Positions 36,057 to 64,000 are shown, counted from the first letter of the stretch. The stretch: DNA of 64,000 bases from an uncultured Candidatus Rokubacteria bacterium (GCA_963826115.1 CAWGVS010000005.1:1536001-1600000); one strand, 5' to 3'. Notes: generated from the sequence alone by a model not told the origin. Numbers and translations: made by a program.

Positions 36057-36104
36057 CGGACCTCGAAGGGGCGCCGGCCCGGCTCGGCGGGCAAGCGGCG
36101 GGAG

Positions 36105-37118: not shown

Positions 37119-37126
37119 CGCCCCTC

Positions 37127-37132
37127 AGTATA
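37127..37132 (-). promoter_or_regulatory. -10 element (TATACT) 8 nt before the ispH ATG
   Basis: Minus strand TATACT-GAGGGGCG-ATG. Confidence 0.5.
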
Positions 37133-37179
37133 GGGGGCCGGGGGCGGCCGGCGCAAGCAACGCCGCCCGCACGCGGGCC

Positions 37180-37785: not shown

Positions 37786-37804
37786 CCGGCGGCGATCGAG
37801 GGCG

Positions 37805-40676: not shown

Positions 40677-40721
40677 GGCGTGATGCGACGCCGGCTGCGC
40701 GGGCCGCCCCGGCGTCCCCGA

Positions 40722-41730: not shown

Positions 41731-41744
41731 CGGCGTGGCGGGCG

Positions 41745-45032: not shown

Positions 45033-45051
45033 AGGCTCCGTTCGCGGGGTC

Positions 45052-45873: not shown

Positions 45874-45890
45874 CGGCCCCGAGCCACCCA

Positions 45891-45899
45891 TGCTACACT
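45891..45899 (+). promoter_or_regulatory. Putative extended -10 element for shc
   Basis: TG-C-TACACT 27 nt upstream of ATG 45927. Confidence 0.45.
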
Positions 45900-45926
45900 A
45901 ACCGTCGGCCTGCCGGACCAACGACC

Positions 45927-47819: not shown

Positions 47820-47857
47820 AGCCCGGCGGGAGCCCGTCCACAGTTCGTTCACCGCGA

Positions 47858-49401: not shown

Positions 49402-49432
49402 TCGGAGCGCTGGAAGGAGGCCGGACGGCGCC

Positions 49433-49870
49433 ATGGGTCGACGAGTGGAGCTTGGGGTCGGGCTGTTCATGGTCGTGGGAGTTCTGGCACTGGCGTACCT
49501 GTCCATGAACCTGGGCCGGGTCGACGTCCTGGGGCGACAGGGGTACGTCGTCTACGCGGACTTCCCCACCGTCGGGGGGCTGAAGTCGGGCGCCGCGGTG
49601 GAGATCGCCGGCGTCTCGGTCGGGCGCGTGCAGTCGATCGGGCTCAAGGACTACCAGGCCCGGGTGACGCTCCGGATCGACACCGACGTGAAGCTCCAGA
49701 CCGACGCGATCGCGTCGATCAAGACCAAGGGCCTCATCGGTGAGAAGTTCGTCCAGATCAGCCCCGGGGGGTCGGAGAAGCTGGTCCCCGCCGGCGGACG
49801 CCTGACCGAGGTCGAGGCGCCCGTCGACATCGAGGAGTTGATCTCGAAGTACGTCTTCGGCAAGGTGTAG
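49433..49870 (+). CDS. mlaD: Single-MCE-domain MlaD
   Basis: N-terminal TM, GGLKSGAAVEIAGV, GLIGEKFV, PGG. Confidence 0.93.
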   Translation: MGRRVELGVGLFMVVGVLALAYLSMNLGRVDVLGRQGYVVYADFPTVGGLKSGAAVEIAGVSVGRVQSIGLKDYQARVTLRIDTDVKLQTDAIASIKTKGLIGEKFVQISPGGSEKLVPAGGRLTEVEAPVDIEELISKYVFGKV

Positions 49871-49874
49871 AGCC

Positions 49875-51284
49875 ATGCGCCAGCCGCGGCTGTCCGCTCG
49901 GGACGCGCTTCTCGCCGTCGCCCTGGTCTCCGCGCTGCTCCCGGGGATCGCCGGCGCTCAGGGCCAGAGCCCCGCCCCGGCGTCGAACGCCGTGCGCATG
50001 AACCTCGAGGACAGCCTGCGCGCAGCGCTCGGGCGGAGCCCGGAGACGCGCCAGGCGATCGCCGAGGTCGAGGGCTATCGCGGCAAGCAGCTCCAGGCCC
50101 TCGGGATCGGACGCCCGCAGATCGAGCTCCAGACGGTGGTCGGCCCGTCGCCCCGCGCCCGCGGCAACCAGGTCTCCTCGCCCGACGACCAGTACTCCCC
50201 GGACATCACCGGGGCGTTCGTCCGGGGCACGGTCAGCGTCCTCCAGCCGATCTTCACTTGGGGCCTGATCGAGAACGCCCGCATGGCCGCCGATCACGGC
50301 GTGCGCGCCGCGCAGGCGGGCGTTGACGTCAAGAGCACCGAGGTCGCGCTCCGCGTGAAGCAGGCGTACTGGGGCGCGGTGACCGCCAAGGCGATCCGCG
50401 CCTTCCTCCTCGAGGTTCGGGACCAGGTCGACCTGGCGATCGCGCGGACCGAGCGGCTGGTCGAGGGCGGGTACGCGACCGACATCGACCTCTACCGGTT
50501 CCGCTCCAAGCGCGGCGAGCTCGAGCGGTTCATCAACCTCGCGGACAAGACGGTCGACATCGCCACCCAGGCTCTGGGAACGTGGACGGGCAAGCCCAGG
50601 GGAGTGCCGGTCGACCCGGCGGACGAGATGCTCCCCGAGACCGTGACGCGCATCCCGGCGGTGGATCAGTACGTCGAGACCGCGCTGTCGGGCCGGCCCG
50701 AGTTCTCCCAGCTCCGGGAGGGCATCGAGGCCCGGCGGCGGCTGGTGGAGGTCGAGCGCAAGCAGGGCTATCCGCTCTTCTTCGTCGGCATCCTCGGCGA
50801 TCTGGCGTATGCGACGAACCGGGATCGTCTCGAGAACCCCTACGTCATCGATCCCCTGTACCACACCGCGGTCGGGCCGGTGATCGGCTTCAAGTACAGC
50901 CTCGACTTCGGCATCCGCGCGGGCAAGATCAAGGAGGCGCAGGCCGAGGTCCAGAAGCTCGAGGCCTTGCGCGACCACGCGCTCGACGGGATCCCGCTCC
51001 AGGTCCGCGACGCGTACAACACCGTCGTGGAGTCCGAGCGGAACATGCGGGTCCTGTCCGAGGCCTTCGACAACGCCAAGCAGTGGCTGGTCGCCAGCTC
51101 GTCGAACACGGACCTGGGGGTCGGCGATCCCGACGACCTGGCGGACGCCTTCGTGCAGTACGCTCGCACGCGCGCCGACTACCTCCAGGCGGTCTACGCC
51201 TACGTCTTCGGTCTCGAGCAGCTCGCCCATGCGGCGGGCCAGGACGTCGCCGAGGTGCAGCGGCTGTCCACGCTCAAGCCGTGA
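49875..51284 (+). CDS. TolC-family outer membrane channel
   Basis: Signal peptide; two repeats with QPIFTWG, VKQAYW, VRDAY; long amphipathic helices. Confidence 0.85.
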   Translation: MRQPRLSARDALLAVALVSALLPGIAGAQGQSPAPASNAVRMNLEDSLRAALGRSPETRQAIAEVEGYRGKQLQALGIGRPQIELQTVVGPSPRARGNQVSSPDDQYSPDITGAFVRGTVSVLQPIFTWGLIENARMAADHGVRAAQAGVDVKSTEVALRVKQAYWGAVTAKAIRAFLLEVRDQVDLAIARTERLVEGGYATDIDLYRFRSKRGELERFINLADKTVDIATQALGTWTGKPRGVPVDPADEMLPETVTRIPAVDQYVETALSGRPEFSQLREGIEARRRLVEVERKQGYPLFFVGILGDLAYATNRDRLENPYVIDPLYHTAVGPVIGFKYSLDFGIRAGKIKEAQAEVQKLEALRDHALDGIPLQVRDAYNTVVESERNMRVLSEAFDNAKQWLVASSSNTDLGVGDPDDLADAFVQYARTRADYLQAVYAYVFGLEQLAHAAGQDVAEVQRLSTLKP

Positions 51285-51310
51285 GAGACTCTTTCCGGAG
51301 GACCGAACGC

Positions 51311-51946
51311 ATGCGACGGCTCGTGGCCCCGCTCCTCATCGCCGCCCTGGCTCTCTGGGCCGGAGTCCCCGCCCACGCCGGCCCACCGACGGACCAGCTC
51401 AAGGGCGGGATCGACCGGGTGCTGGTCATCCTGCAGGATCCCGCCATGAAGCAGCCCGGGAAGGCCGAGGAGCGGCGGCAGAAGATCCGCGCGATCGCCA
51501 ACGAGGTCTTCGACTGGCAGGAGATAGGCAAGCGCGCGCTCGCCCGGCACTGGCAGGCGCGGTCGCCCCAGGAGCGTGAGGAGTTCTCCAAGCTCTTCGC
51601 CGACCTGCTCGAGCGCTCGTACGTCGGCAAGATCGAGGCCTACAGCGGCGAGAAGATCATGTACGGCGAGGAGACCGTCGACGGGGACCAGGCCAACGTG
51701 CGGACGAAGCTCTTGACGAAGAGCGGCACCCAGATCCCGATCGAATACCAGATGCAGAAGGCGGACGAGCGCTGGCGCGTCTACGACGTGAAGATCGAGA
51801 ACGTCGGCCTGGTCGCCAACTACCGGTCCCAGTTCAACCGGATCATCCAGCAGTCGGGCTACAACGACCTGATCCAGCGACTGAAGACCAAGCAGGAAGA
51901 GCTCCAGTTCGACGATCAGGCCGCCACGAAGGGGAAGAAACCGTGA
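51311..51946 (+). CDS. mlaC: MlaC/HpnM-family periplasmic lipid shuttle
   Basis: FDWQEIGKRALARHW, LLERSY, WRVYDVKIENVGLVANYRSQF. Confidence 0.9.
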   Translation: MRRLVAPLLIAALALWAGVPAHAGPPTDQLKGGIDRVLVILQDPAMKQPGKAEERRQKIRAIANEVFDWQEIGKRALARHWQARSPQEREEFSKLFADLLERSYVGKIEAYSGEKIMYGEETVDGDQANVRTKLLTKSGTQIPIEYQMQKADERWRVYDVKIENVGLVANYRSQFNRIIQQSGYNDLIQRLKTKQEELQFDDQAATKGKKP

Positions 51947-52695
51947 CCGGGCTCGTCCTCGCCGCCGGGCTGGGGAAGCGCCTCGCTCCCCTCACCGACG
52001 AGCGGCCCAAGGGGCTGATCGAGCTCGGCGGGCGGAGCCTCCTGGCGCGTCTCCTCGACGGCCTCCGGGCCGCCGGGGTGAACGAGACGGTCCTGGTCGT
52101 CGGCTACCGGCAGGAGATGATCCGGACCGCGCTCGGGACGTCCCACCAGGGCATGCCGCTCCGCTACGTCGTGAACCGGGATTTCGAGAAGGGCCCGCGG
52201 CTGTCGCTCTGGGCGGGCCGCGCGGAGTTCATCCGGGACGACGTGGTCCTCGCGGACGGTGACGTCCTGTTCGCGCCGCCGCTCCTCGAGCGGGTGGTGC
52301 GGGCGAAGGACGAGAGCGTGTTCCTGGGCGAGCCCGACTTCGTCGACACGGGCGAGGAGATCAACCTCTACCAGGCCGGCTCACGCGTCGTCGCGATCCG
52401 GCGGGGCGTCAGCGGCCCGCCGCCGGTGCCCTACGAGGCGCGGTCGGAGTGGGTGGGCTTCGCGAAGGTGGGCCGCGCCGCGGGGCGCGATCTCGCGGCC
52501 GGGCTCGACACCATGATTCGCGAAGGCCGGGTCGACGGCGACTACGAGGTCGCCCTCGACGGCCTCCTCGACCGGCACGCGTTCGCGGTGAGCCCGACGG
52601 CCGGCCTCCCGTGGGTCGAGATCGACTTTCCGCAGGACCTCCACGCGGCGGAGACCGAGATCCTGCCGCGGATCGACCGGCCCGGCCGGAGCTAG
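51943..52695 (+). CDS. Phosphocholine/phosphonate cytidylyltransferase-like nucleotidyltransferase (LicC/PntC-like)
   Basis: LAAGLGKRL, PKGL, DGDVLF, EWVGF, WVEIDFPQDL; GTGA-coupled to mlaC. Confidence 0.75.
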   Translation: MTGLVLAAGLGKRLAPLTDERPKGLIELGGRSLLARLLDGLRAAGVNETVLVVGYRQEMIRTALGTSHQGMPLRYVVNRDFEKGPRLSLWAGRAEFIRDDVVLADGDVLFAPPLLERVVRAKDESVFLGEPDFVDTGEEINLYQAGSRVVAIRRGVSGPPPVPYEARSEWVGFAKVGRAAGRDLAAGLDTMIREGRVDGDYEVALDGLLDRHAFAVSPTAGLPWVEIDFPQDLHAAETEILPRIDRPGRS

Positions 52696-53201
52696 CCGGC
52701 CCGTCCCCGCGCCGCGCCCGCCGCCCGGCCGAGGCTCTCGGCGACGTCGTCGGCGAGGCGCCCGATCCTCCGGAGCCCCTCGTCGTCGTAGTGTCGGCCG
52801 GGGCCGTCCAGGAAGCCGAGCGCCCCCCGCGTCACGCCGTCGAGCCGGACCGGCGCCGCCGCCACGACCCGCAGCCCCTCGGCCTCGAGCCGCTCGCGAA
52901 GCCAGGGGGCGATCGGGACGCGCGGGTCGGCCAGGAGGTCCGGCGTCCAGACCGGACGGCCCTCCCGCACCGCGCGGCCCGCCATCCCGAGGCCGGCGGC
53001 CAGGGTCTGTCCGATCCACCGGTCCACCTCGCCCGCGCCCGCCGTGGCGACGCAGGTGAGCCGGGCGCTCCCGTCGTCGAGCCAGAAGAGCGCGGTGCGC
53101 CGCACCCCGATCGCCGTTCGGACCGCGTCGAGGACCGCGGCCGCGGCGGCGGACACGGGGCCAGAGTCGAAGGCCGACAGGGAGAGCGCGGGCCCGCTCA
53201 C
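52692..53201 (-). CDS. Stand-alone GAF domain protein
   Basis: GMAGRAVREGRPVWTPDLLADPR, AAPVRLDGVTRGAL; GTGA overlap with Rid gene. Confidence 0.75.
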   Translation of the reverse strand: MSGPALSLSAFDSGPVSAAAAAVLDAVRTAIGVRRTALFWLDDGSARLTCVATAGAGEVDRWIGQTLAAGLGMAGRAVREGRPVWTPDLLADPRVPIAPWLRERLEAEGLRVVAAAPVRLDGVTRGALGFLDGPGRHYDDEGLRRIGRLADDVAESLGRAAGAARGRAG

Positions 53202-53584
53202 TCGACGGCGATCGCGTCGATCTCGACCAGCATGTCCGGGTGGATCATCGTGCCGCACTCGACCCACGTGCACGCGGGCCGGACCTCGCCGAACGCCTCG
53301 CGGTGCGCGCGGGCGACATCCTCCCACTGGGACATGTCGGCGAGGTACACACCGGTCTTCACGACGTGGCCGAGGTCGAGCCCGAGCTGGGCGAGCGCCT
53401 CCGACATCGTGCGGATCGCCTGCGCGGCCTGAACGTACGCGTCGCCCTTGCCCACGACCACCCCGCCCGGGCCCGCGGCCGTGCAGCCCGACACCCACGC
53501 CATGTCGCCGACCCGGACGGCCCGCGAGTAGCCGACCAGCGGCTCCCACCGCCCGCCGGAGGAGACCCGCTGGCGCGGCCGCAT
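53198..53584 (-). CDS. Rid (YjgF/YER057c/UK114) family protein
   Basis: WEPLVGYSRAVRVG, VSGCT, RPACT, LVEIDA. Confidence 0.85.
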   Translation of the reverse strand: MRPRQRVSSGGRWEPLVGYSRAVRVGDMAWVSGCTAAGPGGVVVGKGDAYVQAAQAIRTMSEALAQLGLDLGHVVKTGVYLADMSQWEDVARAHREAFGEVRPACTWVECGTMIHPDMLVEIDAIAVE

Positions 53585-54615
53585 CACGGCGCGCCGTTCC
53601 GGGCGCCCCGCTGGAAGTGCGGCATCACGCGGTCGGCGAAGAGCCGCATCGAGCGCGTGATCTGCTCGTGGGTCAGGTACCCGGCGAACTGCGTGACGTT
53701 CAGGAAGTCCGTGACCTCGAAGTAGTCGATCAGCTCGCGGAGCCGCTTGACCGCATCCTCCGGTGACCCCGAGAGGCGCGCCAGCGTGGGAATCCGGTCG
53801 TAGAGGGAGTGCTGCGTCTTCTCGGCGTCGACGGTGAGGCTGTCGAGGAAGCCGAAGTACTTCTCCATGCCGCGCTCGAACGTCTCGTTCGCCTCCGCAG
53901 CGCTCTCCGCCAGATAGCAGAACATCGTGAGCCCGACCCGCATCCGCGCCGGGTCGTGGCCGTGCTCCCGGTACACCCGGCGGTACGTGTCGATCTGGGC
54001 CCGGAGGGCCTCCGGCTTCTGGTTCGCGGGGAACGTCAGGATCGGCCAGCCGAGGGCCCCGTACCGGGCGAACGACGCCTCGCTGATCGAGGCCCCCCAG
54101 CACGGGATCGGGTTCTGCACCGGCTTCGGCCAGATGCTGGCGCGGCGGCCCCGGTAGAGCGGGGTCTCGTAATCGAGCCCGTCCAGCTGGCCGAGCGCCT
54201 CGCGGACGACGGCAAGCGACTGGTCGAAGCGCGCCTGGCTCTCCTCGAGCTTCACCCCGAACCCCATGAACTCGTGGGGCTGGTAGCCGCGCCCCAGGCC
54301 CAGCTCGAGCCGCCCGTTGCTCAGGCAGTCGACCATCGCCGCCTGCTCGACGACCCGGATCGGGTGGTGCTGGAACGGGAGCACGACGACGCCTGCCCCC
54401 AGGCGGATGCGGCGCGTCTCACGGGCCGCCGCCGCGGCCATCATGAGGCAGTCCGGCACCAGGGCGTACCCCGCGAAGTGATGCTCGGCGAACCAGCAAG
54501 CCCAGTAGCCGAGCTGGTCCATGAGACGCACCTCGGCGAGCTGCTGCTCGTAGCGCTCCTGGCTCGACTGCCCGTCCCGCCGGTCGCACAGCACGAGATG
54601 CGAGAAGTACGTCAC
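53584..54615 (-). CDS. Luciferase-like (LLM) flavin-dependent oxidoreductase
   Basis: WFAEHHF, IRLGAG, HPIRVVEQ, GRLELGLGRG, PKPVQ. Confidence 0.9.
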   Translation of the reverse strand: MTYFSHLVLCDRRDGQSSQERYEQQLAEVRLMDQLGYWACWFAEHHFAGYALVPDCLMMAAAAARETRRIRLGAGVVVLPFQHHPIRVVEQAAMVDCLSNGRLELGLGRGYQPHEFMGFGVKLEESQARFDQSLAVVREALGQLDGLDYETPLYRGRRASIWPKPVQNPIPCWGASISEASFARYGALGWPILTFPANQKPEALRAQIDTYRRVYREHGHDPARMRVGLTMFCYLAESAAEANETFERGMEKYFGFLDSLTVDAEKTQHSLYDRIPTLARLSGSPEDAVKRLRELIDYFEVTDFLNVTQFAGYLTHEQITRSMRLFADRVMPHFQRGARNGAP

Positions 54616-54643
54616 GCGAGCTCCTCCGTGTTCGAGTGCCGTG

Positions 54644-54673
54644 ACTGTATCGACGGCCGTTCGCCGCTGTCAA
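54644..54673 (-). promoter_or_regulatory. Sigma70-type promoter for LLM-Rid-GAF operon
   Basis: Minus strand TTGACA-18 bp-TACAGT. Confidence 0.6.
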
Positions 54674-54697
54674 GCGAGGCGCCGCCCGGCGCCCCGA

Positions 54698-54726
54698 TTG
54701 ACGCGCCTGGCGCGGCGGGCTAGCGT
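54698..54726 (+). promoter_or_regulatory. Sigma70-type promoter for the second LLM
   Basis: TTGACG-17 bp-TAGCGT. Confidence 0.55.
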
Positions 54727-54782
54727 TTCGTGGTGAACCGCGAACGAGACCGCCACTCCGGATGTTGCCGGTCGCCGCGCCC

Positions 54783-55841
54783 GTGAAGTTCGGATTGATC
54801 GCGCAGATGCAGGCGCCGAAGCCGTGGCGCGCGGGCGAGAACGTCGACCACCGCATCCACTGGGACACGCTGGCCGAGGCAGTCCTCGCCGACGAGGTCG
54901 GCTTCGACTACTACTGGGCGACCGAGCACCATTTCTACGAGGAGATCGCCCACAGCTCCGCCCCCGAGGTCTTCCTGGCGGCGCTGGCCGCGCGCACGGG
55001 TCGGATCCGGCTGGGTCACGGGGTGGTCGTGCTCCCGTGCAACCACCCGGTGCGGGTGGCCGAGCGCGCCGCGACGCTCGACATCCTGTCGAACGGCCGC
55101 CTCGACCTCGGCACGGGGCGGGGCGCGTCCTGGTACCACACCGAGGCGTTCGGAGTCTCGATCGACGAGTCGCGGGAGGTCTGGGACGAGGCGCTCCGCG
55201 TGATCCTGGGGCTCATGGTCCACGACACCTTCCCGGGGCACAAGGGCCGGCACTTCGAGGTCCCCGAGCGGAAGCTCGTCCCCAAGCCGCTCCAGAAGCC
55301 CCACCCTCCGCTCTGGGTCGCGGCCACGAGCCGGGCGACCTTCGCCAGCGCCGCCCGCGCGGGCCTGGGCGTCCTCGGGTTCACCGCCGTCCCGCCCGAG
55401 GAGCTCGCGCCGGCGGTGGCGGCGTACCGCGAGGCCCAGGCCGGGGCCGACCCCTCGGGCTTCTACGGCGTCGCGCCGAACTTCCAGGTGGCGGCGTTCA
55501 TGACCGCGCACTGCGACGCGGACGACCGCCGCGGGCGCGCGATCGCCGGCGCCGCGGCGCGCTGGTACCTCGGGGACAACGACGCGCCGTTGAACCGCGT
55601 GCGGTTCGGGCCCGACTTCGACCGGAGCCGGTTCGCCAAGTACACCGACGACGCGCTCGTCCGCGACCGCATGGTGGTCGGCGGCGATCCCGACACGTGC
55701 TCGCGCGTGGTCGAGGCGTGGGCGAAGGTCGGCGTCGACCAGCTCATCCTGATGATCCAGGCCGGCGAGACGTCGCACGACGACGTCATGCGCGCGATCG
55801 AGCTCCTGGGCACGAAGGTGCTGCCCCGCTTCCAGGACTGA
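54783..55841 (+). CDS. Luciferase-like (LLM) flavin-dependent oxidoreductase
   Basis: WATEHHF, HSSAPEVFL, HPVRVAERAATLD, GRLDLGTGR, PKPLQKPHPP (alt start 54762). Confidence 0.9.
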   Translation: MKFGLIAQMQAPKPWRAGENVDHRIHWDTLAEAVLADEVGFDYYWATEHHFYEEIAHSSAPEVFLAALAARTGRIRLGHGVVVLPCNHPVRVAERAATLDILSNGRLDLGTGRGASWYHTEAFGVSIDESREVWDEALRVILGLMVHDTFPGHKGRHFEVPERKLVPKPLQKPHPPLWVAATSRATFASAARAGLGVLGFTAVPPEELAPAVAAYREAQAGADPSGFYGVAPNFQVAAFMTAHCDADDRRGRAIAGAAARWYLGDNDAPLNRVRFGPDFDRSRFAKYTDDALVRDRMVVGGDPDTCSRVVEAWAKVGVDQLILMIQAGETSHDDVMRAIELLGTKVLPRFQD

Positions 55842-55858
55842 CGCCGGCGCGCCGGGGC

Positions 55859-56407
55859 TCAGCCGCTGGTTCGGCTCCGGAACCGGTAGAGGGCGACCAG
55901 CGTGCCCGCGTCGAGAATGTCCCCCGCGTCCGCCATGCGGTAGGCCTCGCCCACCGGCACCGGCACGACCTCGATCTGCTCGTCGGCGTCGAGCCCGCGC
56001 GGGGCCGGGCGAAGCTCCCGCGCCACGAACAGGAAGATGCGCTCGTCGGTGAGCCCGGGGTCGGCCAGGGCCTCCCCCAGCGGCTCGAGCCGGCCGGCCT
56101 CGTAGCCCGCCTCCTCGATCAGCTCCCGCCGGGCGCACGCCTCGGGCGACTCGCCGGCCTCGATGGTCCCCGCCGGCAGCTCCCAGATCTCGGCGCCCAC
56201 GATGGGCCGGTACTGCCGGATCAGCGCCACGCGGCCGTCGTCGAGGATGGGGACGATGTAGGCGACGGACGGCGTCCGCACCGCGTCGAGCCACACCCGT
56301 CGGCCGTCGGGCAGCGCGTGGCGCTCCCGCCGGACGCGGAGCCGGCTCCCGCGGTACTCGGGGGGATCGCCCGGGTCGTCTACCCCGCGTGCGGCGCCTT
56401 GATCCAT
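55859..56407 (-). CDS. NUDIX hydrolase (ADP-ribose pyrophosphatase-like); start uncertain
   Basis: RQYRP, ELPAGTIEAGESPEACARRELIEEAGY NUDIX box. Confidence 0.85.
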   Translation of the reverse strand: MDQGAARGVDDPGDPPEYRGSRLRVRRERHALPDGRRVWLDAVRTPSVAYIVPILDDGRVALIRQYRPIVGAEIWELPAGTIEAGESPEACARRELIEEAGYEAGRLEPLGEALADPGLTDERIFLFVARELRPAPRGLDADEQIEVVPVPVGEAYRMADAGDILDAGTLVALYRFRSRTSG

Positions 56408-57195
56408 TGGATGATCGCGTCGACCACCTCGCGCTCGATGCCGAAGTAGCCGTGCTGCGCCTGGGCCTCGCACGGATCGGACTTCGGCGGATTGCCGCCC
56501 TCGAACGTGAGGATCTCCTTCGGGCTGGCCTGCCCCAGCGCCTTGTAGATGACGGTCGCCTCCGAAGGCGAGGAGAACTTGCAGGCGTCGTCCTTGTGCC
56601 GGACGATCAGTGTCGGGATCCGGATGTCCCCGAGCTTGGCCGTCTTCACCGTCTCTCCGGTGGTCCGGGAAGTCTGCACGACGCTGGAAGTCAGCACGAG
56701 CCCGTCCGGGCCACCCGGGCCTTCCGCGAGACGCCCCGCCACCCCGGCGGCCGAGACGGACCCCATGCTCGTCCCCACGAGCCACACGGGAACGGGCGCC
56801 ATCTCGCGAAGCGCGCCGATCACCTGCTTCATGTCCTCGGCATGCTCCTTCGAGGTCCGGAAGTTCCAGTAGTCTCCGCGGTCGGACGGGGTGTCGACCA
56901 CGGCGACCAGGAAGCCGGCGTTCGCGAACCGCTCCCGCATCTTGACCAGGAAGTTGAACTTGAGCTGGCCGATGTTGTTCGGCGGTGAGAGCGCCAGGTG
57001 GCCGTCGCCGCCGGCGAAGAGGATCAGGCTCGCGGTCGGCGTCTTGGGCGAGCGCACGAGCAGGAATCCCTGCGTGACGCCCTTTCGCGTCGGCACGCTC
57101 CGGACTTCGTCGCTCGCGGCGCCGGCCTGGACGGCGGCGACAAGGAGCGCCAGGACCAGGCCGCGGCGAACTTGGCGGCCGGTCGGCTGTCTCAT
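56380..57195 (-). CDS. Exported alpha/beta hydrolase
   Basis: Signal peptide; FAGGDG, GTSMG nucleophile elbow, HKDDAC, HGYFG. Confidence 0.8.
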   Translation of the reverse strand: MRQPTGRQVRRGLVLALLVAAVQAGAASDEVRSVPTRKGVTQGFLLVRSPKTPTASLILFAGGDGHLALSPPNNIGQLKFNFLVKMRERFANAGFLVAVVDTPSDRGDYWNFRTSKEHAEDMKQVIGALREMAPVPVWLVGTSMGSVSAAGVAGRLAEGPGGPDGLVLTSSVVQTSRTTGETVKTAKLGDIRIPTLIVRHKDDACKFSSPSEATVIYKALGQASPKEILTFEGGNPPKSDPCEAQAQHGYFGIEREVVDAIIQWIKAPHAG

Positions 57196-57221
57196 CTCGT
57201 CCCCTCCCCTTCTTGCCGTGA

Positions 57222-59657
57222 TCAGGTCCGCACTCGCTCGCCCCGCGGGTCCCAGAGAGGCGCCCGGCGGACCTCCGCGGCCACGAGCCGGCCGAACGAC
57301 TCCACCGAGACCCGGGTGCCCGGCCCCGTCAGGTCGATCGGCAGGTAGGCGAGCCCGACGTTCTGTCCGAGCGTGTGGCCGTACCCCCCGCTCCGCAGAC
57401 GGCCCACGACGCGGCCCTCCGAGACGACGGCCTCCCCGCCCCACAGGACGCACGACGCCCCGTCGAGGACGAGAGGCACGAGCCTCCGCTCGGGTCCGGT
57501 CGCGCGCTGGCGCAGGAGCGCCTCGCGCCCGATGAAGTCGCCCTTGTCGAGCCGGACGCAGAAGCCGAGGCTCGCCTCGAGGGGCGTGTCGCTCGGGCCG
57601 ATGTCGTCGCCCCAGTAGTAGAAGCATTTCTCGAGGCGGAGGGTGTTCAGGGCGTAGTAGCCGACCGGCTGGATCCCGAACTCCTCGCCGGCGGCCAGGA
57701 GGGCGTCCCACACCCGCCCGGCGCCGTCCGCCGGGACGACCAGCTCCCAGCCGAGCTCCCCGGCGAAGCTCACGCGGTTGGCGCGCACCCCCACCCCGGC
57801 CACGTCGACCGGCCGGGACGTGAGGTACGGGAACGCCGGCGTCGACAGATCGGCCCGGCTCACCTTGGCGAGGGTCCGCCGGGAGTCCGGGCCCCAGACG
57901 CTCACGACGGCGTGGCGGTCGGTGACGTCGGCGATCGTGACCGAGCCGTCGTCCGGCAGGTGGAGCCGGAGCCAGCCGAGGTCGCTCGCCGACGACCCGG
58001 TCCCCGTGGTCACCCGGAACGCCGCGGCGTCGAGGCGGGTGACGGTCACGTCGCACTCGATCCCGCCACGCGGGTTCAGGCACTGCGTGTAGATCAGGCT
58101 CCCCGCGGGCCGGTCCACGTCGTTCGCGCAGAGGCGCTGGAGGAACGGGACGGCGCCCGGGCCGGTCACGTCGAGCTTGCCGAAGGACGTCATGTCGAGG
58201 AGGCCCACGCGCTCGCGCACGGCTCGGTGCTCGCGCGCGACGTGCTCCCAGTAGCCCGGCCGGTCCCACGTCCGCTCGTCGATGCCCTGCCGCCGCCCTG
58301 GCCGCCCGGGGACGAAGTAGTTGGCGCGCTCCCAGCCTCCGCGTTCCCCGAACACGGCGCCGCGGGCGAGGAGCCGCTCGAGGAGCGGGCTCGTCCGGGC
58401 CGGACGGCCCCACTCCCCCTCGTCCGACGGGAACCGGGGCGCGTAGTAGTAGCGGTACACCTCCCGTGCCCGCTCCGCGGCGATGCGGCGGTCGCGCAGG
58501 TGGGGACCGAACCGGCGGACGTTCAGCTCCGAGACGTCCATCGAGGGCGCCCCCTCGAGGATCCACTCGGCCATCACCCGCCCGACGCCGCCCGCGCCCG
58601 CGATGCCGTTGATCGACATCCCGGCCGCAACCCAGAGCCCCGGGCGCCCCGGGACCGGGCCCAGCGCGTAGTGACCGTCCGGCGTGAAGCCGTCGGGCCC
58701 GTTGACGAGCTGGAGGATCTCGGCCTTCTCGACCGCGGGAAACCGCCGGATCGCGCCGGCCAGGAGCGGCTCGAACAGCTCCCACTCGGCCGGCAGGAGC
58801 TGCTGCGTGAACTCCCAGGGCACGTCGTCGAGCCGCCACGTCTTCGGATCCGGCTCGAAGCCGCCCACCAGGTAGCCGCCGACCTCCTCGCGGACGTAGA
58901 CGAGGTTCTCGGGATCGCGCACCACCGGCGTGTCCCGGGACAGCTCCTGGCCGGGAACCGGACGCGTGATCAGGTACTGGTGCATGAGCGGCACGATGGG
59001 CAGGTCGACGGCGGCCATCGCCGCGACGCGGGGCGCCCACTGGCCGGCCGCGTTGACGACGATCTCGGCGCGGATCGGGCCGGCGGTCGTCTCGACCCCC
59101 CGAATCCGGCCCTTCGGATCCACGTGGATGCCGGTGACCCGGACCCCGGTGACGATCTCCGCACCCCGCGCGGCGGCCCGGCGCGCCAGCTCGCGGGTCA
59201 TCCCGTTCGGCTCGAGGTACCCGTCGTCCGGGATGTGCACCGCGCCGTGGAGATCGGCGCTGCTCATGAGCGGACAGACGCGCAGCGCCTCGTCCGGCCC
59301 GATGATGGCCACGTCGAGCCCGAGCGCGCGGGCCCGGCTCACGCTCCTCTGGAGCCCCTTCAGCATCGCCGCGCTCGAGGCGAGCCGGAGGCTCCCCACC
59401 GGCCGCCAGCCGGCCGCCTCGCCGAGCTCGGCGGCCAGCTCCCGGTAGAGCCGGATGCTGTAACTCATCAGTTGCATGTCGGCAGGCGAGGTGCGGAACT
59501 GGGACACGAGCCCGACGGAATGGAAGGTCGTGCCGCTGGTGAGCTCGCCCTTCTCGACCAGGGCGACGTCGCGGCACCCCGCGGCCGCCAGGTGGTAGGC
59601 GATGCTGCAGCCGACGATCCCGCCGCCCACCACGACCACGGCCGCGTCGGCTCGCAT
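57222..59657 (-). CDS. Dimethylglycine/sarcosine dehydrogenase-like flavoprotein with GcvT folate-binding domain
   Basis: GGGIVG, TSGTTFHSVG (covalent-FAD His position), FTPDG, GWERANYF, DMTSFGK, GELGWEL, LRLEK. Confidence 0.92.
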   Translation of the reverse strand: MRADAAVVVVGGGIVGCSIAYHLAAAGCRDVALVEKGELTSGTTFHSVGLVSQFRTSPADMQLMSYSIRLYRELAAELGEAAGWRPVGSLRLASSAAMLKGLQRSVSRARALGLDVAIIGPDEALRVCPLMSSADLHGAVHIPDDGYLEPNGMTRELARRAAARGAEIVTGVRVTGIHVDPKGRIRGVETTAGPIRAEIVVNAAGQWAPRVAAMAAVDLPIVPLMHQYLITRPVPGQELSRDTPVVRDPENLVYVREEVGGYLVGGFEPDPKTWRLDDVPWEFTQQLLPAEWELFEPLLAGAIRRFPAVEKAEILQLVNGPDGFTPDGHYALGPVPGRPGLWVAAGMSINGIAGAGGVGRVMAEWILEGAPSMDVSELNVRRFGPHLRDRRIAAERAREVYRYYYAPRFPSDEGEWGRPARTSPLLERLLARGAVFGERGGWERANYFVPGRPGRRQGIDERTWDRPGYWEHVAREHRAVRERVGLLDMTSFGKLDVTGPGAVPFLQRLCANDVDRPAGSLIYTQCLNPRGGIECDVTVTRLDAAAFRVTTGTGSSASDLGWLRLHLPDDGSVTIADVTDRHAVVSVWGPDSRRTLAKVSRADLSTPAFPYLTSRPVDVAGVGVRANRVSFAGELGWELVVPADGAGRVWDALLAAGEEFGIQPVGYYALNTLRLEKCFYYWGDDIGPSDTPLEASLGFCVRLDKGDFIGREALLRQRATGPERRLVPLVLDGASCVLWGGEAVVSEGRVVGRLRSGGYGHTLGQNVGLAYLPIDLTGPGTRVSVESFGRLVAAEVRRAPLWDPRGERVRT

Positions 59658-59687
59658 GGCGTTCCTATCGGCTCGGGCGCGACTCCG

Positions 59688-60866
59688 TCAGGCGAGGATC
59701 TCCTCGAGGACCCGGCCGTCGACCCGCCCGGCGGCCATGTCCGTCAGCCGGCAAAGCGTGGGCATGAGGTCGATCGTCCGGCCGGCCCGCATCTCCGACC
59801 CGGGCCGTACCCCCGGGCCGGTCATCAGCATCGGGATCCGCTGCTCGTGCTTGGAGCCGTGCGACCGGAGCCCCGACTCGGTCCGGTGGGCCGGGCCGTC
59901 GTCCCACACGCCCAGCGCCACGTCGCGCGCCGCCCAGCAGATGAGGTCGCCGACCCGCTCGGGCGGGAGGTGGTCCCGGTGGGCCTCCGCGTTCGGGACA
60001 ACCTCGTCGATCCCGGGGACCCGTTCGAGGACGACCCGGGCCTCCCGGGCCATCCCGGGGTCGTCGAAGTACAGGTAGAGCGCCCCGCCGAGATCCCGGT
60101 GGTGGGCGTAGAGGCCGTCCCGGATGAGCGGCACGCCGTGGGTCGCGATGCCGTGCTCCCCGAGCACCCTGACCGGCGAGACGGAGCGGAGCTTCGCGTT
60201 CATCCCGTGGTCCGCCGTGAGGATGACCAGGGTCTCGGCCGGGTCGTAGACGTCCAGGAGGCGCCCGAGGGCCTCGTCCTTCGCCTCGAGGTACTGCTGC
60301 ATGGCGGGCTCGTCGGGCGCCAGCATGTGCTGGGGGTAGTCCGTCGTCGCGACATAGAGGAAGTCCGGGCGCTCGCGGAGCGCGACCTCCCGGGCCATCC
60401 GGAACACCCACAGGTTGATGTCGAGGGTGAAGATCTCGGGCGGGGCCCCGGCGGCCGCCCGGTGGGCCTCGGGGTGGGTCTTCATGTCCACGCACACGTC
60501 GAGCCCGCGCCGGAGGAGCTTCGTGAGCTTCTCCTTGGCGGTCACGAGGGCCGTCGACCAGCCGGCCTTCTGGAAGTGCTCGAAGACCAGCGGCTCCTGG
60601 ACGAACGAGACCTGCTCCATGAAGACGTCCGCCTTCGCCCCGCGGTCGTAGAAGAAGTTCGTCGAGAGACCGTGGCGGGCGGGGTACGTCCCCGTGAGGA
60701 GCGAGATGTGGTTCACGTTCGTCAGGCTCGGAAGGACCCCCCGGCCGTCGAGCGTCGAGCCGCCGGCCTTCATGAGCGCGGCCAGCCGGGGCATCCGGGC
60801 CGGCTGGACGTACCCCGGGTCGAACCCGTCGATGAGGAACATGAGGATCTTCCGTGGACGGCTCAT
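59688..60866 (-). CDS. phnA: Phosphonoacetate hydrolase (alkaline phosphatase superfamily)
   Basis: LIDG, PSLTNVNH, TAKEKL, TTDYPQH, TADHGMN, LRSHG match PhnA motifs. Confidence 0.8.
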   Translation of the reverse strand: MSRPRKILMFLIDGFDPGYVQPARMPRLAALMKAGGSTLDGRGVLPSLTNVNHISLLTGTYPARHGLSTNFFYDRGAKADVFMEQVSFVQEPLVFEHFQKAGWSTALVTAKEKLTKLLRRGLDVCVDMKTHPEAHRAAAGAPPEIFTLDINLWVFRMAREVALRERPDFLYVATTDYPQHMLAPDEPAMQQYLEAKDEALGRLLDVYDPAETLVILTADHGMNAKLRSVSPVRVLGEHGIATHGVPLIRDGLYAHHRDLGGALYLYFDDPGMAREARVVLERVPGIDEVVPNAEAHRDHLPPERVGDLICWAARDVALGVWDDGPAHRTESGLRSHGSKHEQRIPMLMTGPGVRPGSEMRAGRTIDLMPTLCRLTDMAAGRVDGRVLEEILA

Positions 60867-60882
60867 CGGTCGACCTCCGGGG

Positions 60883-61989
60883 TCATCGGGGAACCTCCAA
60901 GGCCAGATCGGCAAGGCTCGAGCGGAACGCGTCGACCACCGCGTCCATGTCCCGGGGCGTGAGCGTCCCCATGTTGGACACGCGGAATGCGTAGGTGCGG
61001 ATGTCACCCTGGCCGGCGTAGATCACGTACCCGCGGCTCTTCATGGCGTCGTGGAGCGGATCGTAGGCCAGCCCCGGGAGGAGGCGGAAGGTGGTCAGGA
61101 TGTTCGACCGGGCCCCCTCGGGGACCAGGATCTCGAAGCCGAGCCCTGCCATGCCGCGCCGCACCACCCGGGCGTTCTCGGCATACCGGGCGATCCGGTG
61201 GTCCACGCCCTCTCGCTCGAGCTCCACGAGCGCCTGCCGCATCGCGTGGAGGACCTGGACGGCGGGCGTGAACGGGGTGCTGTCGCGCTCCTGGGTGGCG
61301 TAGTGGGCATGGAGGTCGAGGTAGACGCTCCGGGGCGGCTGTCCCGCGAGGGCGTCCAGGGCCGAGCGTCGTCCGAGCACGAAGGCGATCCCCGGGACCC
61401 CCTGGAGGCACTTGTTGGCGCTCGCGGTCACGAAGTCGATGCCGTCGGCCGAGACATCCAGCGGCTCGCCGAAGAGGGAGCTCATGGCGTCCACCAGCAC
61501 CCGACGGCCCGCCCCGGCGGCGACCCGGGCGACGTCCACCACCGGGTTCAGCAGCCCCGTCGTCGTCTCGTGGTGGACCACCGCGACGTGGCTCAGCACG
61601 GGATGCCTCCGGAGAGCCGCGTCCACGTCAGCCGGCGGGACCGGGGTGGTGACGTCGTAGCGGAGCACCTCGGCCCGGATCCCGTGGGCGTGCGCGATCC
61701 GGGCCAGCCGGTCCCCATACACACCGTTGTTCACGATCAGGAGGCCGCGGTCGCGGGGCACCGCCGAGCACACCGCCGCCTCGACCGCCGCGGTCCCGGA
61801 GCCGGTGAAGAGGACGGACGCGAAGCTCCCCGCACACCCCGCCATCCGGACGAGGCGCTCCCGGCAGTCGCGCATCATCTCGAAGAACTCCGGCTCCCGG
61901 TGACAGAGGTCCGGCATCACCAGGGCCTCGCGCACCGGTCGGCTCGTGTTGGCGGGGCCGGGGTTCAGCAGGATCCACTCGCGCTCCAT
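60883..61989 (-). CDS. phnW: 2-aminoethylphosphonate aminotransferase (class V PLP)
   Basis: LLNPGP, DLCHREPEF, GSGTAAVE, HHETTTGLLN, DAMSS, SANKCLQGVPG, PFTP, VIYAGQG. Confidence 0.85.
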   Translation of the reverse strand: MEREWILLNPGPANTSRPVREALVMPDLCHREPEFFEMMRDCRERLVRMAGCAGSFASVLFTGSGTAAVEAAVCSAVPRDRGLLIVNNGVYGDRLARIAHAHGIRAEVLRYDVTTPVPPADVDAALRRHPVLSHVAVVHHETTTGLLNPVVDVARVAAGAGRRVLVDAMSSLFGEPLDVSADGIDFVTASANKCLQGVPGIAFVLGRRSALDALAGQPPRSVYLDLHAHYATQERDSTPFTPAVQVLHAMRQALVELEREGVDHRIARYAENARVVRRGMAGLGFEILVPEGARSNILTTFRLLPGLAYDPLHDAMKSRGYVIYAGQGDIRTYAFRVSNMGTLTPRDMDAVVDAFRSSLADLALEVPR

Positions 61990-62181
61990 CCTCGATCCTC
62001 CCGGCCGTCAGGCTACCCCTCGCGCCCGTCGCCCGTCCACCCTGGCGTCGCGACGTCGATCGCTCCGACGCCGACAGGTCCGCTTCCGCAGAGGCGGCCG
62101 GAGGTCGCCCCCGTGGTTTCTTCCTTGTAACCGACGAAGCGACACGCTAAGGTGCCGCTAGAGGAGGAGACCCAAGGGGTC

Positions 62182-62379
62182 ATGGCGCAGCTCGCCTTTC
62201 TGATCTCGCTCGTCGCACTGGGAATCTCCATCCTCGCCTACCAGGAAGCCGGCGGCACGAAGGATCTCACCAAGAGGGTCGAGTCGCTTCGTGAAGACCT
62301 CCGGCGCGAGACAGCGGACAGCCTATCCAAGCTCGAAAAGGCGCTCCGCTCGGCGGAGCCCGCGAAATCGAAGCCATGA
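62182..62379 (+). CDS. Small single-pass membrane protein with coiled-coil tail
   Basis: MAQLAFLISLVALGISILAYQ then charged helix; purine-rich upstream region. Confidence 0.65.
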   Translation: MAQLAFLISLVALGISILAYQEAGGTKDLTKRVESLREDLRRETADSLSKLEKALRSAEPAKSKP

Positions 62380-62443
62380 GTCGAGCCGGCGCGTCTCCTC
62401 CGCGAGGCTGCCGACGCGCGACGCGTCCCGCTTCGATCCGCGA

Positions 62444-63124
62444 GTGCACACCCGGAGGCTGCGAGCCCTAGAGGCGGTGGACGCCGAATCGGACCCCCCT
62501 GACGCTGGTTGGCGCACCGAGCCGCGCTCCGCTGAGCGCCGGGTCGTCCTGCGGCGGCATCAGCTATCCCACCTGCCCGGGCTCGAGGTGCACGCCACCA
62601 TCTTCGAGACCCGCTACGCGCCGGGCTCCTCGCCGAGCCACTGCAGCGGGACGTGCTGCGTGAGCGGCGTCAAGGTCGACGTCGCCCAGCGCGATCAGAT
62701 CCTCGCCCACACCGACCTCGTCCGGCGCGCGATGGACCCCGGACAGGACCACGACCCCCGCCACTGGTTCGAGGAGACGGAGGTCCCCGACCCCGATTTC
62801 CCGTCGGGCCGGTGCGTCGGCACCGAGGTCCACAACGGCGGCTGCGTCTTCCTGGACTCGGCCGGGCGGTGCGTGCTCCAGGCGGTGACGATCGCCCAGG
62901 CCAGGCCAGGTTTCGACCTGAAGCCCTTCTTCTGCTACGCCTTCCCGATCACGGTCGCCAACGGAGCGCTGTGGATCGACGAGATGTGTCTGGACGCGCC
63001 CGGCGGCTGCTGCCGGCCGGCGCCCGGTGGCCCGCTCGGCGTCCTCGACGTCTGCGAGGGCGAGCTGCGCCACACGCTCGGCGACGAGGGGCTCCAGGAG
63101 CTCCGGCGGGCTATCGAGGAGTGA
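62444..63124 (+). CDS. Cysteine-cluster protein (DUF3109/YkgJ-like); start uncertain
   Basis: CSGTCC..G, DFPSGRC, CVFL..GRCVLQ, KPFFCYAFPI. Confidence 0.65.
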   Translation: MHTRRLRALEAVDAESDPPDAGWRTEPRSAERRVVLRRHQLSHLPGLEVHATIFETRYAPGSSPSHCSGTCCVSGVKVDVAQRDQILAHTDLVRRAMDPGQDHDPRHWFEETEVPDPDFPSGRCVGTEVHNGGCVFLDSAGRCVLQAVTIAQARPGFDLKPFFCYAFPITVANGALWIDEMCLDAPGGCCRPAPGGPLGVLDVCEGELRHTLGDEGLQELRRAIEE

Positions 63125-63134
63125 CCGCCACTCG

Positions 63135-64000
63135 ATGAGCTTACGCGCCGGCGCCCAGGTCTCCGCCTCCGGCTCCCCGGTTCGCACGACCGGCCGGGCC
63201 GGCTTGACGGGACCGACGGGGCGGAACGGCCGGCCCGGACCGGCGCCGCGGATCGGCCTTGCCTGCAACCTGAAGCCCGAGGAAGGCCAGCCGTCCCTCC
63301 CGGCGCCGACCGCGAACGGCCACGGGAACGCGGCGGACCTCTACGCCGAGTGGGACGACGAGGTCACGATCGCGGCGCTCGAGGCCGCGCTGGCGGAAGC
63401 GGGCGAGGTCGTCCGGCTCGAGGCGACGAAGGAGTTCCCGCTCCGCCTCCACGAGGCCCGACCCGACATCGTCTTCAACGTGGCCGAGGGGCTCTGGGGG
63501 CCGAACCGCGAAGCCCACGTCCCCGCTTTCTGCGAGTTCTGGAACGTCCCGTACACCGGGAGCGATCCGTTGACGCTGGCGCTCTGCCTCGACAAGGCGC
63601 GGGCCAAGGAGGTCCTGGCCCACCATCGCGTCCCGACCGCCGAGTTCACCGTCGTGCCCCCGCGGGCGCCGCTCGACCGGATCCCGCCCCTCCCCGTCGT
63701 GGTGAAGCCCCTCCACGAGGGATCGAGCAAGGGAATCACCCAGGCGTCGCTCTGCCGGACGCGGGCCGAGGTCGGCCGCGCGGCCGGACGAGTCTGGCGG
63801 CACTACCGCCAGCCGGCGCTCATCGAGCGATGGCTCCCCGGCCGGGAGTTCACGTGCGCCCTGATCGGGAACGACCGGAGGACCCGGCTCCTCCCGGTGG
63901 TCGAGCTGAACTTCGACGCCCTGCCACGGGGCGCCGAGCGTCTCTACTCGTACGAGGCGAAGTGGGTGTGGGACACGCCGGACAAGCCGCTCCCCATCTT
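63135..64000 (+). CDS. ATP-grasp D-Ala-D-Ala ligase-like protein (partial, runs off window end)
   Basis: Manual translation: RIGLACNLK..YAEWDD..FNVAEG..REAHVP..YTGSD..LDKARAK..VKPLHEGSSKGI..ERWLPGREFT. Confidence 0.85.
   Translation, partial: MSLRAGAQVSASGSPVRTTGRAGLTGPTGRNGRPGPAPRIGLACNLKPEEGQPSLPAPTANGHGNAADLYAEWDDEVTIAALEAALAEAGEVVRLEATKEFPLRLHEARPDIVFNVAEGLWGPNREAHVPAFCEFWNVPYTGSDPLTLALCLDKARAKEVLAHHRVPTAEFTVVPPRAPLDRIPPLPVVVKPLHEGSSKGITQASLCRTRAEVGRAAGRVWRHYRQPALIERWLPGREFTCALIGNDRRTRLLPVVELNFDALPRGAERLYSYEAKWVWDTPDKPLPI

Follow-up and report, generated by a model that had tools for sequence, protein, structure and literature searches.

A small predicted aminoethylphosphonate-degradation operon with a folate-domain flavoprotein and a PhnA-like hydrolase in a Rokubacteria-group bacterium

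The stretch of DNA analysed here, 64,000 nucleotides long and referred to as the window, is C5:1536001-1600000 of a 6.24-Mb genome in 12 contigs (99.09% complete, 5.34% contaminated). The window has a GC content of 72% and its closest homologues are labelled Methylomirabilota or Rokubacteria; the source is a Rokubacteria-group soil bacterium with a small operon for the predicted degradation of the natural phosphonate 2-aminoethylphosphonate (AEP). The operon consists of three intact open reading frames (ORFs), co-oriented on the minus strand:

60883-61989, minus strand: PhnW-type AEP aminotransferase, 368 aa, first operon gene
59688-60866, minus strand: PhnA-like hydrolase of the alkaline phosphatase superfamily, presumed C-P bond hydrolase, 392 aa
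57222-59657, minus strand: predicted dimethylglycine dehydrogenase (DMGDH)-type N-demethylase with FAD and folate domains, 811 aa, proposed substrate N-methyl-AEP or N,N-dimethyl-AEP

Intergenic gaps computed from these coordinates are 16 bp (60867-60882) and 30 bp (59658-59687), in agreement with the first-pass annotation, which had described phnW, phnA and the 811-aa gene as co-oriented with gaps of about 16 and 30 bp. Third-position GC is 0.93-0.95 in all three frames, so that, in a genome of 72% GC, the frames are taken to be real coding sequence.

The first gene product belongs to the PhnW family and is predicted to catalyse AEP:pyruvate transamination. It passes the PhnW-AepZ model TIGR03301 (383.2 bits; cut-off, 360.8) and NF010006 (323.6 bits; cut-off, 296), matches Pfam Aminotran_5, and falls under the cut-off of the narrower catabolic model TIGR02326 (311.8 bits; cut-off, 400.8). 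Orthologues with 72-77% identity directly adjoin bona fide PhnA in other Rokubacteria (L091-L093), and PhnW and the PhnA-like gene are adjacent both in the window operon and in 17 of the 31 loci with a PhnA-like relative that were recovered in a scan of species-representative genomes.

The second gene had been annotated as phnA, a name that holds for the catalytic residues and the nearest structures of its product but not for its family. Read from the ATG at residue 48 of the longest ORF (the start common to 14 of 14 aligned homologues), the 392-aa protein scores 168.3 bits against the phosphonoacetate hydrolase model TIGR02335, far under the cut-off of 407.55; relatives in loci L030 and L032 score 184 and 194, while Rokubacterial bona fide PhnA reach 576-597 bits, a difference that places the protein in a distinct PhnA-like sister family rather than with the curated PhnA. 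Identity to bona fide PhnA is ~31-36%, and the Pfam match is to Phosphodiest (119.5 bits), the type I phosphodiesterase/nucleotide pyrophosphatase-phosphodiesterase (NPP) family. The top matches among structures are nonetheless phosphonoacetate hydrolases, 1EI6 (161 bits, E 3.5e-46) and 3SZY (145 bits, E 2.9e-41), followed by NPPs at E ~1e-8. In an alignment with five bona fide PhnA, the nucleophile T49, the metal ligands D13, D176, H180, D219, H220 and H336, and both lysines of a K-x-K motif, K111 and K113, are kept; according to a review (PMC10574752), the two lysines of PhnA stabilise the leaving group.

Evidence for a phosphonate-related function of the PhnA-like family comes from its replacement of PhnA and from three neighbourhoods. 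Beside one and the same type of PhnW, the PhnA-like gene stands where other loci carry bona fide PhnA (the window as against L091 and L092). A 69% identical relative in a metagenome-assembled genome labelled Planctomycetota (L030:1708-9176) is divergent from a PepM-nucleotidyltransferase fusion, in a cluster that further holds a split phosphonopyruvate decarboxylase (Ppd), an AepZ-like transaminase and a second nucleotidyltransferase, and is a putative C-P hydrolase beside a predicted AEP biosynthesis cluster. At L039 a PhnA-like gene is paired with a divergent LysR gene, the same layout as the LysR-phnA pair on a Caballeronia plasmid (L070). More distant relatives (group B; 59-63% identity) were found in nine of the genomes in a sample of 151 from the phylum, a sample that underlies all phylum tallies given here and that includes three genomes flagged as unpublished (G029, G047 and G058), about which no specific claim is made. 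Group B genes lie without PhnW between GNAT-GT4 genes and OppDF-type transporter genes (L031-L036, L038, L040-L043), and the same position in genome G030 (L084:6099-15630) holds PhnA, DMGDH-like, PhnW and PhnX genes. The group B neighbourhood also contains a histidine kinase, a sigma-54 response regulator and an SBP_bac_5 gene, and its Opp-type transporter and two-component system may have a role in phosphonate uptake. A still more remote relative (38% identity) follows a GT4 glycosyltransferase gene in a Dehalococcoidia genome, with no PhnW nearby.

The 811-aa protein carries four Pfam domains, DAO (252.7 bits), FAO_M (45.3), GCV_T (256.9) and GCV_T_C (72.6), all over their gathering scores, and from residue 5 to 802 aligns to rat DMGDH (4P9S; 506.5 bits over ~800 aligned residues), with scores of 495 bits against human DMGDH and 384 bits against the Arthrobacter dimethylglycine oxidase DMGO (1PJ5). 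At the positions aligned to DMGO His48 (flavinylation), His225 and Tyr259 the residues are identical; a covalent-FAD histidine and a His/Tyr catalytic dyad are described for human DMGDH in a paper (PMC5082570) whose text names no substrate-contact residues. Three other full-length DMGDH-type paralogues (58%, 51% and 45% identity) occur in the genome in unrelated contexts, the 45% paralogue grouping in the tree with the enzyme of a Phaeobacter glycine-betaine cluster, and because of these copies the 811-aa protein is unlikely to be a housekeeping dimethylglycine dehydrogenase. The JGI label of many of its close homologues is '4-methylaminobutanoate oxidase'.

Because no phosphoenolpyruvate (PEP) mutase exceeds the cut-off in the genome (best match, 133 bits; cut-off, 319.55) and PhnJ has no match there, the cluster is predicted to be catabolic, and by the same model searches it is the sole recognisable phosphonate module of the genome. 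No Ppd-like gene was seen among the ORFs scanned in window 44000-64000. The first-pass annotation had noted that phnY, for the oxidation of phosphonoacetaldehyde, is missing from the operon and had proposed a search for phnY or phnX elsewhere; neither is over cut-off anywhere in the genome, the best match to the PhnY model TIGR03250 scoring 391 bits (cut-off, 635.65) and resembling a general lactaldehyde-type aldehyde dehydrogenase, and the best PhnX match 43 bits (cut-off, 220). A tblastn search with the PhnY of Sinorhizobium meliloti gave no aldehyde-dehydrogenase-like match in the window or any of the 31 PhnA-like loci, and eight further PhnA/PhnW loci (L086-L093) have no such gene. The absence is not peculiar to the operon but is the norm of this soil phylum, in which PhnY is over cut-off in five of the 151 genomes and PhnX in 19, against ~71 with bona fide-type PhnA (the type confirmed in 12 loci, where identity to S. 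meliloti PhnA is 59-65%, and in three of these also by TIGR02335). Throughout the phylum, either phosphonoacetaldehyde is oxidised by an unlinked general aldehyde dehydrogenase, or the hydrolases accept the aldehyde. In a genome of the same genus (G095; L082:526-14584), a PhnX gene stands apart from PhnW, beside two class-III aminotransferases and together with an iron-type alcohol dehydrogenase and two sets of ATP-binding cassette (ABC) importer genes; this locus may represent a second, PhnW-independent phosphonate module that the genome of the window lacks.

PhnW lies directly upstream of the PhnA-like gene in those 17 of the 31 loci in which the PhnA-like protein is at least 73% identical to that of the window (group A). 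Conservation of the trio, which had been proposed as a check, is partial: the demethylase gene is intact in 11 of the 17 (one copy cut by a contig end), but is a remnant in three, reduced to the FAD domain in L015 and to internal-deletion remnants in L021 and L027, and has left no trace in the other three (L025, L026 and L029). The gene is taken to be ancestral to this type of cluster and repeatedly lost, and so to behave as an accessory module. Two metagenome loci of the window clade (L094 and L095) have the same gene order. Among the 151 genomes, 10 have a group A PhnA-like gene and six a window-type demethylase (at least 84% identity), each of the six beside PhnA-like and PhnW genes. Elsewhere, a PhnA-like gene split over two frames (G149:C5:901782-902952, probably the same as L028) and a demethylase of the S. 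meliloti type with an in-frame TGA and a truncated alignment (G126:C13:66714-68363) are signs of ongoing cluster decay.

DMGDH-type genes stand beside phnW in three separate contexts and two phyla, and the view that a DMGDH-type folate-domain flavoprotein belongs with phnW and phnA-type genes gains from this recurrence. The first context is the clade of the window itself; the second is a separate clade, present both on Rhizobiales plasmids and in other Rokubacteria. On the plasmids, an 816-825-aa 'FAD-dependent oxidoreductase' is encoded within 10 kb of phnWAY in each of the five loci inspected, those of S. meliloti, Phyllobacterium, Shinella, Aminobacter and a record labelled Roseateles XES5; four of these genes come directly after a DeoR gene:

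L071:5995-9337, L074:4311-7669, L073:18539-21095 and L075:18525-21095: DeoR/GlpR gene and DMGDH-type gene on Rhizobiales plasmids, beside phnWAY and an AEP ABC transporter

The position of this DeoR-DMGDH pair varies between genera, and in S. meliloti its other flank is a taurine/sulfoacetaldehyde cluster. All four Pfam domains recur in the S. meliloti protein, which shares 43% identity with that of the window. Its orthologues form a sharply delimited group, with 89 plasmid records at 80% identity or more and one at 60-80%, the remainder being under 60% (top ~53% among those listed); in two further records the S. meliloti-type gene is, by coordinates, 4 and 8 kb from a PhnA match. The Caballeronia LysR-phnA-MFS locus, which has no phnW, holds no DMGDH-type gene within its 5-kb flanks.

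In other Rokubacteria, genes of this second clade, whose products are 61-63% identical to the S. meliloti protein, occur in tight operons with the orders PhnA, PhnY, DMGDH-type, PhnW (L080 and L085), PhnA, DMGDH-type, PhnW, PhnX (L084) and PhnA, DMGDH-type, PhnW (L086-L089). In the 151-genome sample, 18 of the 19 second-clade genes are beside PhnW and/or PhnA and 15 directly beside PhnW; conversely, 15 of 16 PhnW genes of the S. meliloti type have a second-clade gene directly adjacent, with two copies that look truncated or interrupted. Three of the genomes have bona fide PhnA followed directly by the DMGDH-type gene, namely G032 (L090:7315-11802), in which PhnX is next, G033 (C146) and G073 (C118). 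At L093 the slot between PhnA and PhnW is filled by a single-domain DAO enzyme of 385 aa, and evidently the slot serves for amine-oxidising accessory enzymes. The window clade keeps the folate domain (GCV_T and GCV_T_C), as do both second-clade members that were scanned and the L107 protein described below.

In two trees (quick searches with support from SH-aLRT only), the window clade and the S. meliloti clade are not sisters in either. Joining the two main phn-linked clades costs 391 log-likelihood units, and the approximately unbiased (AU) test, applied to a group named after the first tree had been seen, rejects their single origin (p = 1.3e-5). The window clade groups with the 58% paralogue of its own genome and a large group of Chloroflexi/Bipolaricaulia type, whereas the clade of S. 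meliloti joins a MabO-like gene with purU/folD flanks on an Arthrobacter plasmid (L078) and with a Paracoccus plasmid gene. More basal to the latter clade is a gene in an operon with a choline/ethanolamine-kinase-like gene. On a Shinella zoogloeoides plasmid (L076:5113-9436), a divergent DeoR gene is followed by such a kinase-like gene and then by a DMGDH-type gene 53% identical to the phn-linked gene of S. meliloti, the stop of the former overlapping with the start of the latter, a layout that hints at a subfamily for N-methylated 2-aminoethyl phosphates or phosphonates.

The third context emerged from 80 metagenome contigs, 77 of which carry relatives at 54-60% identity (the sister group). 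Two of them (L107:2579-11622 and L118:2661-9239) have the order GntR, MttB-family methyltransferase, (YitT), DMGDH-like (58% identity), PhnW, PhnX, with an additional APH/choline-kinase-like gene between PhnW and PhnX in L107. Both PhnW pass all three NCBIfam models; of the PhnX, truncated by the contig ends, that of L107 passes the cut-off of 220 (240 bits) and that of L118 does not (169 bits). Since enzymes of the MttB superfamily demethylate quaternary amines (MtcB, MtyB and MtpB, by the titles listed in PMC12478193), this gene order is the one expected for a chain from trimethyl-AEP to AEP, and both loci look like a complete demethylation chain of this kind followed by the PhnWX route. In a further contig (L102), PhnW is 4 kb away and genes for the alpha and beta subunits of electron transfer flavoprotein (ETF) adjoin the flavoprotein gene. 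The DMGDH family is large and has several functions. At L121:5956-13822, two tandem DMGDH-type genes are followed by MttB-family and URO-D-type methyltransferase genes; this arrangement, typical of the sister group, is probably a cluster for the demethylation of quaternary amines of the betaine type.

Taken together, these data suggest a catabolic operon for AEP and its N-methylated forms that would work by folate-linked demethylation, PhnW and the PhnA-like hydrolase, a reading to which we assign a probability of roughly 0.55. The 811-aa flavoprotein would oxidise the N-methyl group of N-methyl-AEP, and probably also of N,N-dimethyl-AEP, and would pass the one-carbon unit to tetrahydrofolate (THF) in its GcvT-type domain and the electrons to ETF or another acceptor, the products being AEP and 5,10-methylene-THF. 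PhnW would then transaminate AEP with pyruvate to phosphonoacetaldehyde and alanine, and the PhnA-like enzyme would cleave the C-P bond with its threonine nucleophile and two-metal site, acting either on phosphonoacetaldehyde directly or on phosphonoacetate formed from it by an unlinked general aldehyde dehydrogenase. The demethylase would be an accessory module that widens the substrate range, in the role of PbfB/C/D and with other chemistry, in that it would deliver AEP rather than phosphonoacetaldehyde and methylamine. THF-coupled demethylation feeding PhnW, as the first-pass annotation had proposed, is favoured by the recurrence, the MttB contigs and the slot at L093, but the flavoprotein has turned out to be accessory and its substrate is still predicted from context.

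Several observations weigh against this reading. The putative substrate of the flavoprotein is read from gene context, and no convincing specificity residues emerged, the alignment columns common to the phn-linked clades and rare elsewhere numbering two and then nine; at one candidate, Y668, rat DMGDH also has Tyr. The flanks of the operon contain no LysR regulator, AEP ABC transporter or other linked transporter or regulator, and the best matches in the genome to the AEP-binding proteins PhnS and PhnS2 reach 115 and 213 bits against cut-offs of ~393-395 (PhnS2, 392.75), so that no dedicated AEP transporter was found. Deeper members of the window clade (L100, 71%; G083, 67%) are without phn neighbours. 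The flavoprotein could instead be an unrelated neighbour that acts on dimethylglycine, sarcosine or another N-methyl amine and is linked to the operon by descent among close relatives. The genome, after all, has four full-length DMGDH-type copies in varied contexts; the window-type orthologue is limited to one genus of the phylum sample (six genomes, as against 10 with group A); in six of the 17 related loci the gene has decayed or been lost although PhnW and its PhnA-like partner are intact there; 74 of the 77 sister-group loci are without phn neighbours, with no PhnW in their flanks; and the NUDIX and LLM genes downstream are equally syntenic. This explanation is nevertheless unlikely given the same-strand gap of only 30 bp to the PhnA-like gene, the recurrence beside phnW in two more phylogenetically separate contexts, with other gene orders and in another phylum, and the existence of another gene, the 45% paralogue, as the one that groups with the betaine cluster. 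Placed somewhat lower is a flavoprotein of the PbfB/C/D kind, which would oxidise the ethyl side of AEP or N-methyl-AEP to phosphonoacetaldehyde and ammonia or methylamine, parallel to PhnW. G032, G033 and G073 fit such a deamination better, unless another transaminase substitutes, as these three of the 19 second-clade genomes combine PhnA and the second-clade gene (and PhnX in G032) with no PhnW found genome-wide at E<=1e-60; FAD enzymes are reported in phnX clusters without phnW (PMC10590968), and the enzyme in the slot at L093 is a single-domain one. The complete folate domain, needed only for one-carbon capture, is retained and so argues for oxidation of the methyl rather than the ethyl carbon, most second-clade genes directly adjoin PhnW, and the clusters with MttB fit a stepwise demethylation, all of which leave Pbf-like chemistry doubtful.

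For the hydrolase, the choice lies between C-P cleavage and an NPP/alkaline-phosphatase-type phosphatase, phosphodiesterase or phosphonate-monoesterase, which might release AEP from lipid head groups or esters while the C-P bond is cut elsewhere, if at all. The low TIGR02335 score and the Pfam family agree with such an enzyme, no PhnY in the genome means no known source of phosphonoacetate, and the substrate of the PhnA-like protein is made uncertain by its group B relatives, which like the 38% Dehalococcoidia relative follow GT4 genes (with GNAT in group B) and have no PhnW near. Against it stand the nearest structures, which are phosphonoacetate hydrolases (E ~1e-46, compared with ~1e-8 for NPPs), both leaving-group lysines, the substitution for bona fide PhnA at L091 and L092, the occupation of the group B position by PhnA, DMGDH-like, PhnW and PhnX in G030, the relative beside PepM, Ppd and AepZ genes, and the LysR pairing shared with Caballeronia; a hydrolase that leaves the C-P bond alone is thus not the expected outcome, although of all the alternatives it carries the most weight. 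A biosynthetic cluster, in which an AepZ-type transaminase would make AEP for tailoring by the flavoprotein, is highly improbable. TIGR03301 does span catabolic and biosynthetic transaminases, and the score against the catabolic-only TIGR02326 falls short, but neither a PEP mutase over cut-off in a 99%-complete genome nor a Ppd-like gene among the ORFs scanned was found, and the orthologous PhnW genes adjoin bona fide PhnA; with no pepM found, this explanation was rejected.

A broader proposal goes beyond the folate-linked route set out for the window: at least two phyla might degrade mono-, di- and, with MttB, trimethyl-AEP to AEP by stepwise folate- or corrinoid-linked demethylation, and the PhnA-like enzymes might cleave phosphonoacetaldehyde directly. 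We consider it improbable as a whole and would rank it between the two alternatives for the flavoprotein. If true, it would describe a phosphonate counterpart of the pathway from glycine betaine to glycine, for which the DMGDH family had been recruited at least twice independently. Direct cleavage of phosphonoacetaldehyde by the PhnA-like enzyme, and perhaps by all Rokubacterial PhnA, would explain the near-absence of PhnY from the phnW-phnA clusters of the phylum and would be a third kind of C-P hydrolase chemistry that consumes this aldehyde.

The surroundings of the operon add three further features:

61990-62181, no strand assigned: intergenic stretch from phnW to the small divergent ORF upstream, presumed to hold the promoter
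56380-57193, minus strand: 271-aa signal-peptide-bearing protein between the demethylase and the NUDIX gene, operon membership doubtful
55859-56335, minus strand: NUDIX hydrolase (ADP-ribose pyrophosphatase-like), syntenic downstream neighbour, functional link putative

A consensus scan of 55500-62500, uninformative at 72% GC, showed no sigma-70-like promoter or intrinsic terminator. A search of sequencing runs for the window listed DNA metagenomes, with 0.32 of the sampled words at best, and no RNA data set. The divergent upstream neighbours are the small ORF, a DUF3109 protein and a D-Ala-D-Ala-ligase-like gene. The 271-aa protein has no Pfam or NCBIfam match, and among the 31 PhnA-like loci a homologue is present in L037 only. 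The NUDIX gene (Pfam NUDIX, 65.6 bits; top NCBIfam matches NudE and YffH/AdpP, both under their cut-offs) is next after the cluster in 15 of the 17 loci that pair PhnW with the PhnA-like gene, among them loci that have lost the demethylase. As it persists where the demethylase is lost, and as NUDIX genes are also near DMGDH-like genes without phn neighbours (nine of the 77 sister-group loci and the 58% paralogue of the genome itself), it was not adopted as an operon member. NUDIX genes recur within ~3 kb of DMGDH-type genes irrespective of phn neighbours (e.g., L064:6678-7367), and one (L075:6068-6577) adjoins the LysR gene of the Shinella phnWAY cluster. Farther along the window, 34821-47819 is an isoprenoid/hopanoid neighbourhood with LytB, squalene/phytoene synthase, an HpnH-like radical SAM protein with DUF3463, and squalene-hopene cyclase; a single-domain DAO flavoprotein at 34821-36104 shares 41% identity with the demethylase over the N-terminal half of the latter.

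N-methylated aminophosphonates are a common class of natural phosphonate. The uses of them known so far are the Pbf oxidoreductases, which release methylamine from N-methyl-AEP, and, for trimethyl-AEP, the TmpAB oxygenases; according to PMC10590968, the sole route described for that compound depends on two iron oxygenases. In the literature, no phosphonate cluster was found to be described with a DMGDH-type enzyme fused to GcvT, although supplementary tables, which lay outside the search, could list such fusions. Only PMC10590968 joins phnW with SarDH or DMGDH terms, none joins phosphonate, phnW and aminomethyltransferase, and among listings and abstracts nothing was found that links aminoethylphosphonate, tetrahydrofolate and demethylation in the sense proposed here. 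What is new is probably the combination, in an AEP catabolic cluster, of a divergent hydrolase family with an accessory flavoenzyme whose predicted chemistry is new. If the proposed activities are correct, a folate-coupled demethylase would feed the methyl carbon into one-carbon metabolism, the hydrolytic AEP pathway would extend to di- and trimethylated forms, and the recurrent 'FAD-dependent oxidoreductase' beside phnWAY on the plasmids of Sinorhizobium, a genetically tractable model bacterium, and of related genera would acquire a function. N-methylated AEP substrates have already been synthesised (PMC10590968).

Among known systems, the PhnW-PhnY-PhnA pathway of S. meliloti shares with the window operon a transaminase and a hydrolase of alkaline-phosphatase fold in which nucleophile, metal ligands and lysine pair agree, and differs in that the operon and genome are without PhnY and the hydrolase is of a separate family. 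PbfB/C/D are likewise accessory PF01266 flavoenzymes of AEP clusters, dispensable, patchy in distribution and predicted to widen the range to N-methyl-AEP, whereas the window protein has the full DMGDH-type architecture, folate-binding domain included, and is predicted to remove the methyl group and leave AEP. PbfC and PbfD are reported to yield phosphonoacetaldehyde and no formaldehyde (PMC10590968). That study uses SarDH and DMGDH as reference sequences and trims its alignments to the PF01266 domain, which in Pbf is at most ~31% identical to the characterised reference enzymes and 20.6-26.5% to SarDH (Table 1 there); its main text makes no mention of a GcvT or folate domain. With DMGDH, SarDH and DMGO (4P9S, 5L46 and 1PJ5) the window protein has in common the four-domain architecture, the flavinylation histidine, the His/Tyr dyad and the complete folate domain, but its gene lies in a phosphonate-catabolic context and not in one of glycine betaine catabolism. 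MabO, the DMGDH-type gamma-N-methylaminobutyrate demethylating oxidase of the Arthrobacter nicotine plasmid, converts an omega-N-methylamino acid to the primary amine, which then goes to a transaminase. Demethylation to a primary amine ahead of transamination is the logic proposed for the window operon; the MabO-like gene at L078, however, falls with the S. meliloti-type clade rather than the window clade, and the acid group proposed here is a phosphonate. MabO is itself listed among the reference enzymes of PMC10590968. TmpA and TmpB, iron oxygenases that act on trimethyl-AEP, are described as cleaving the C-P bond without demethylation and yielding glycine betaine (PMC10590968, PMC11203657). 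They and the window operon would have N-methylated AEP as a phosphorus source in common, whereas the route proposed for the window would strip the methyl groups first and then enter the hydrolytic AEP pathway.

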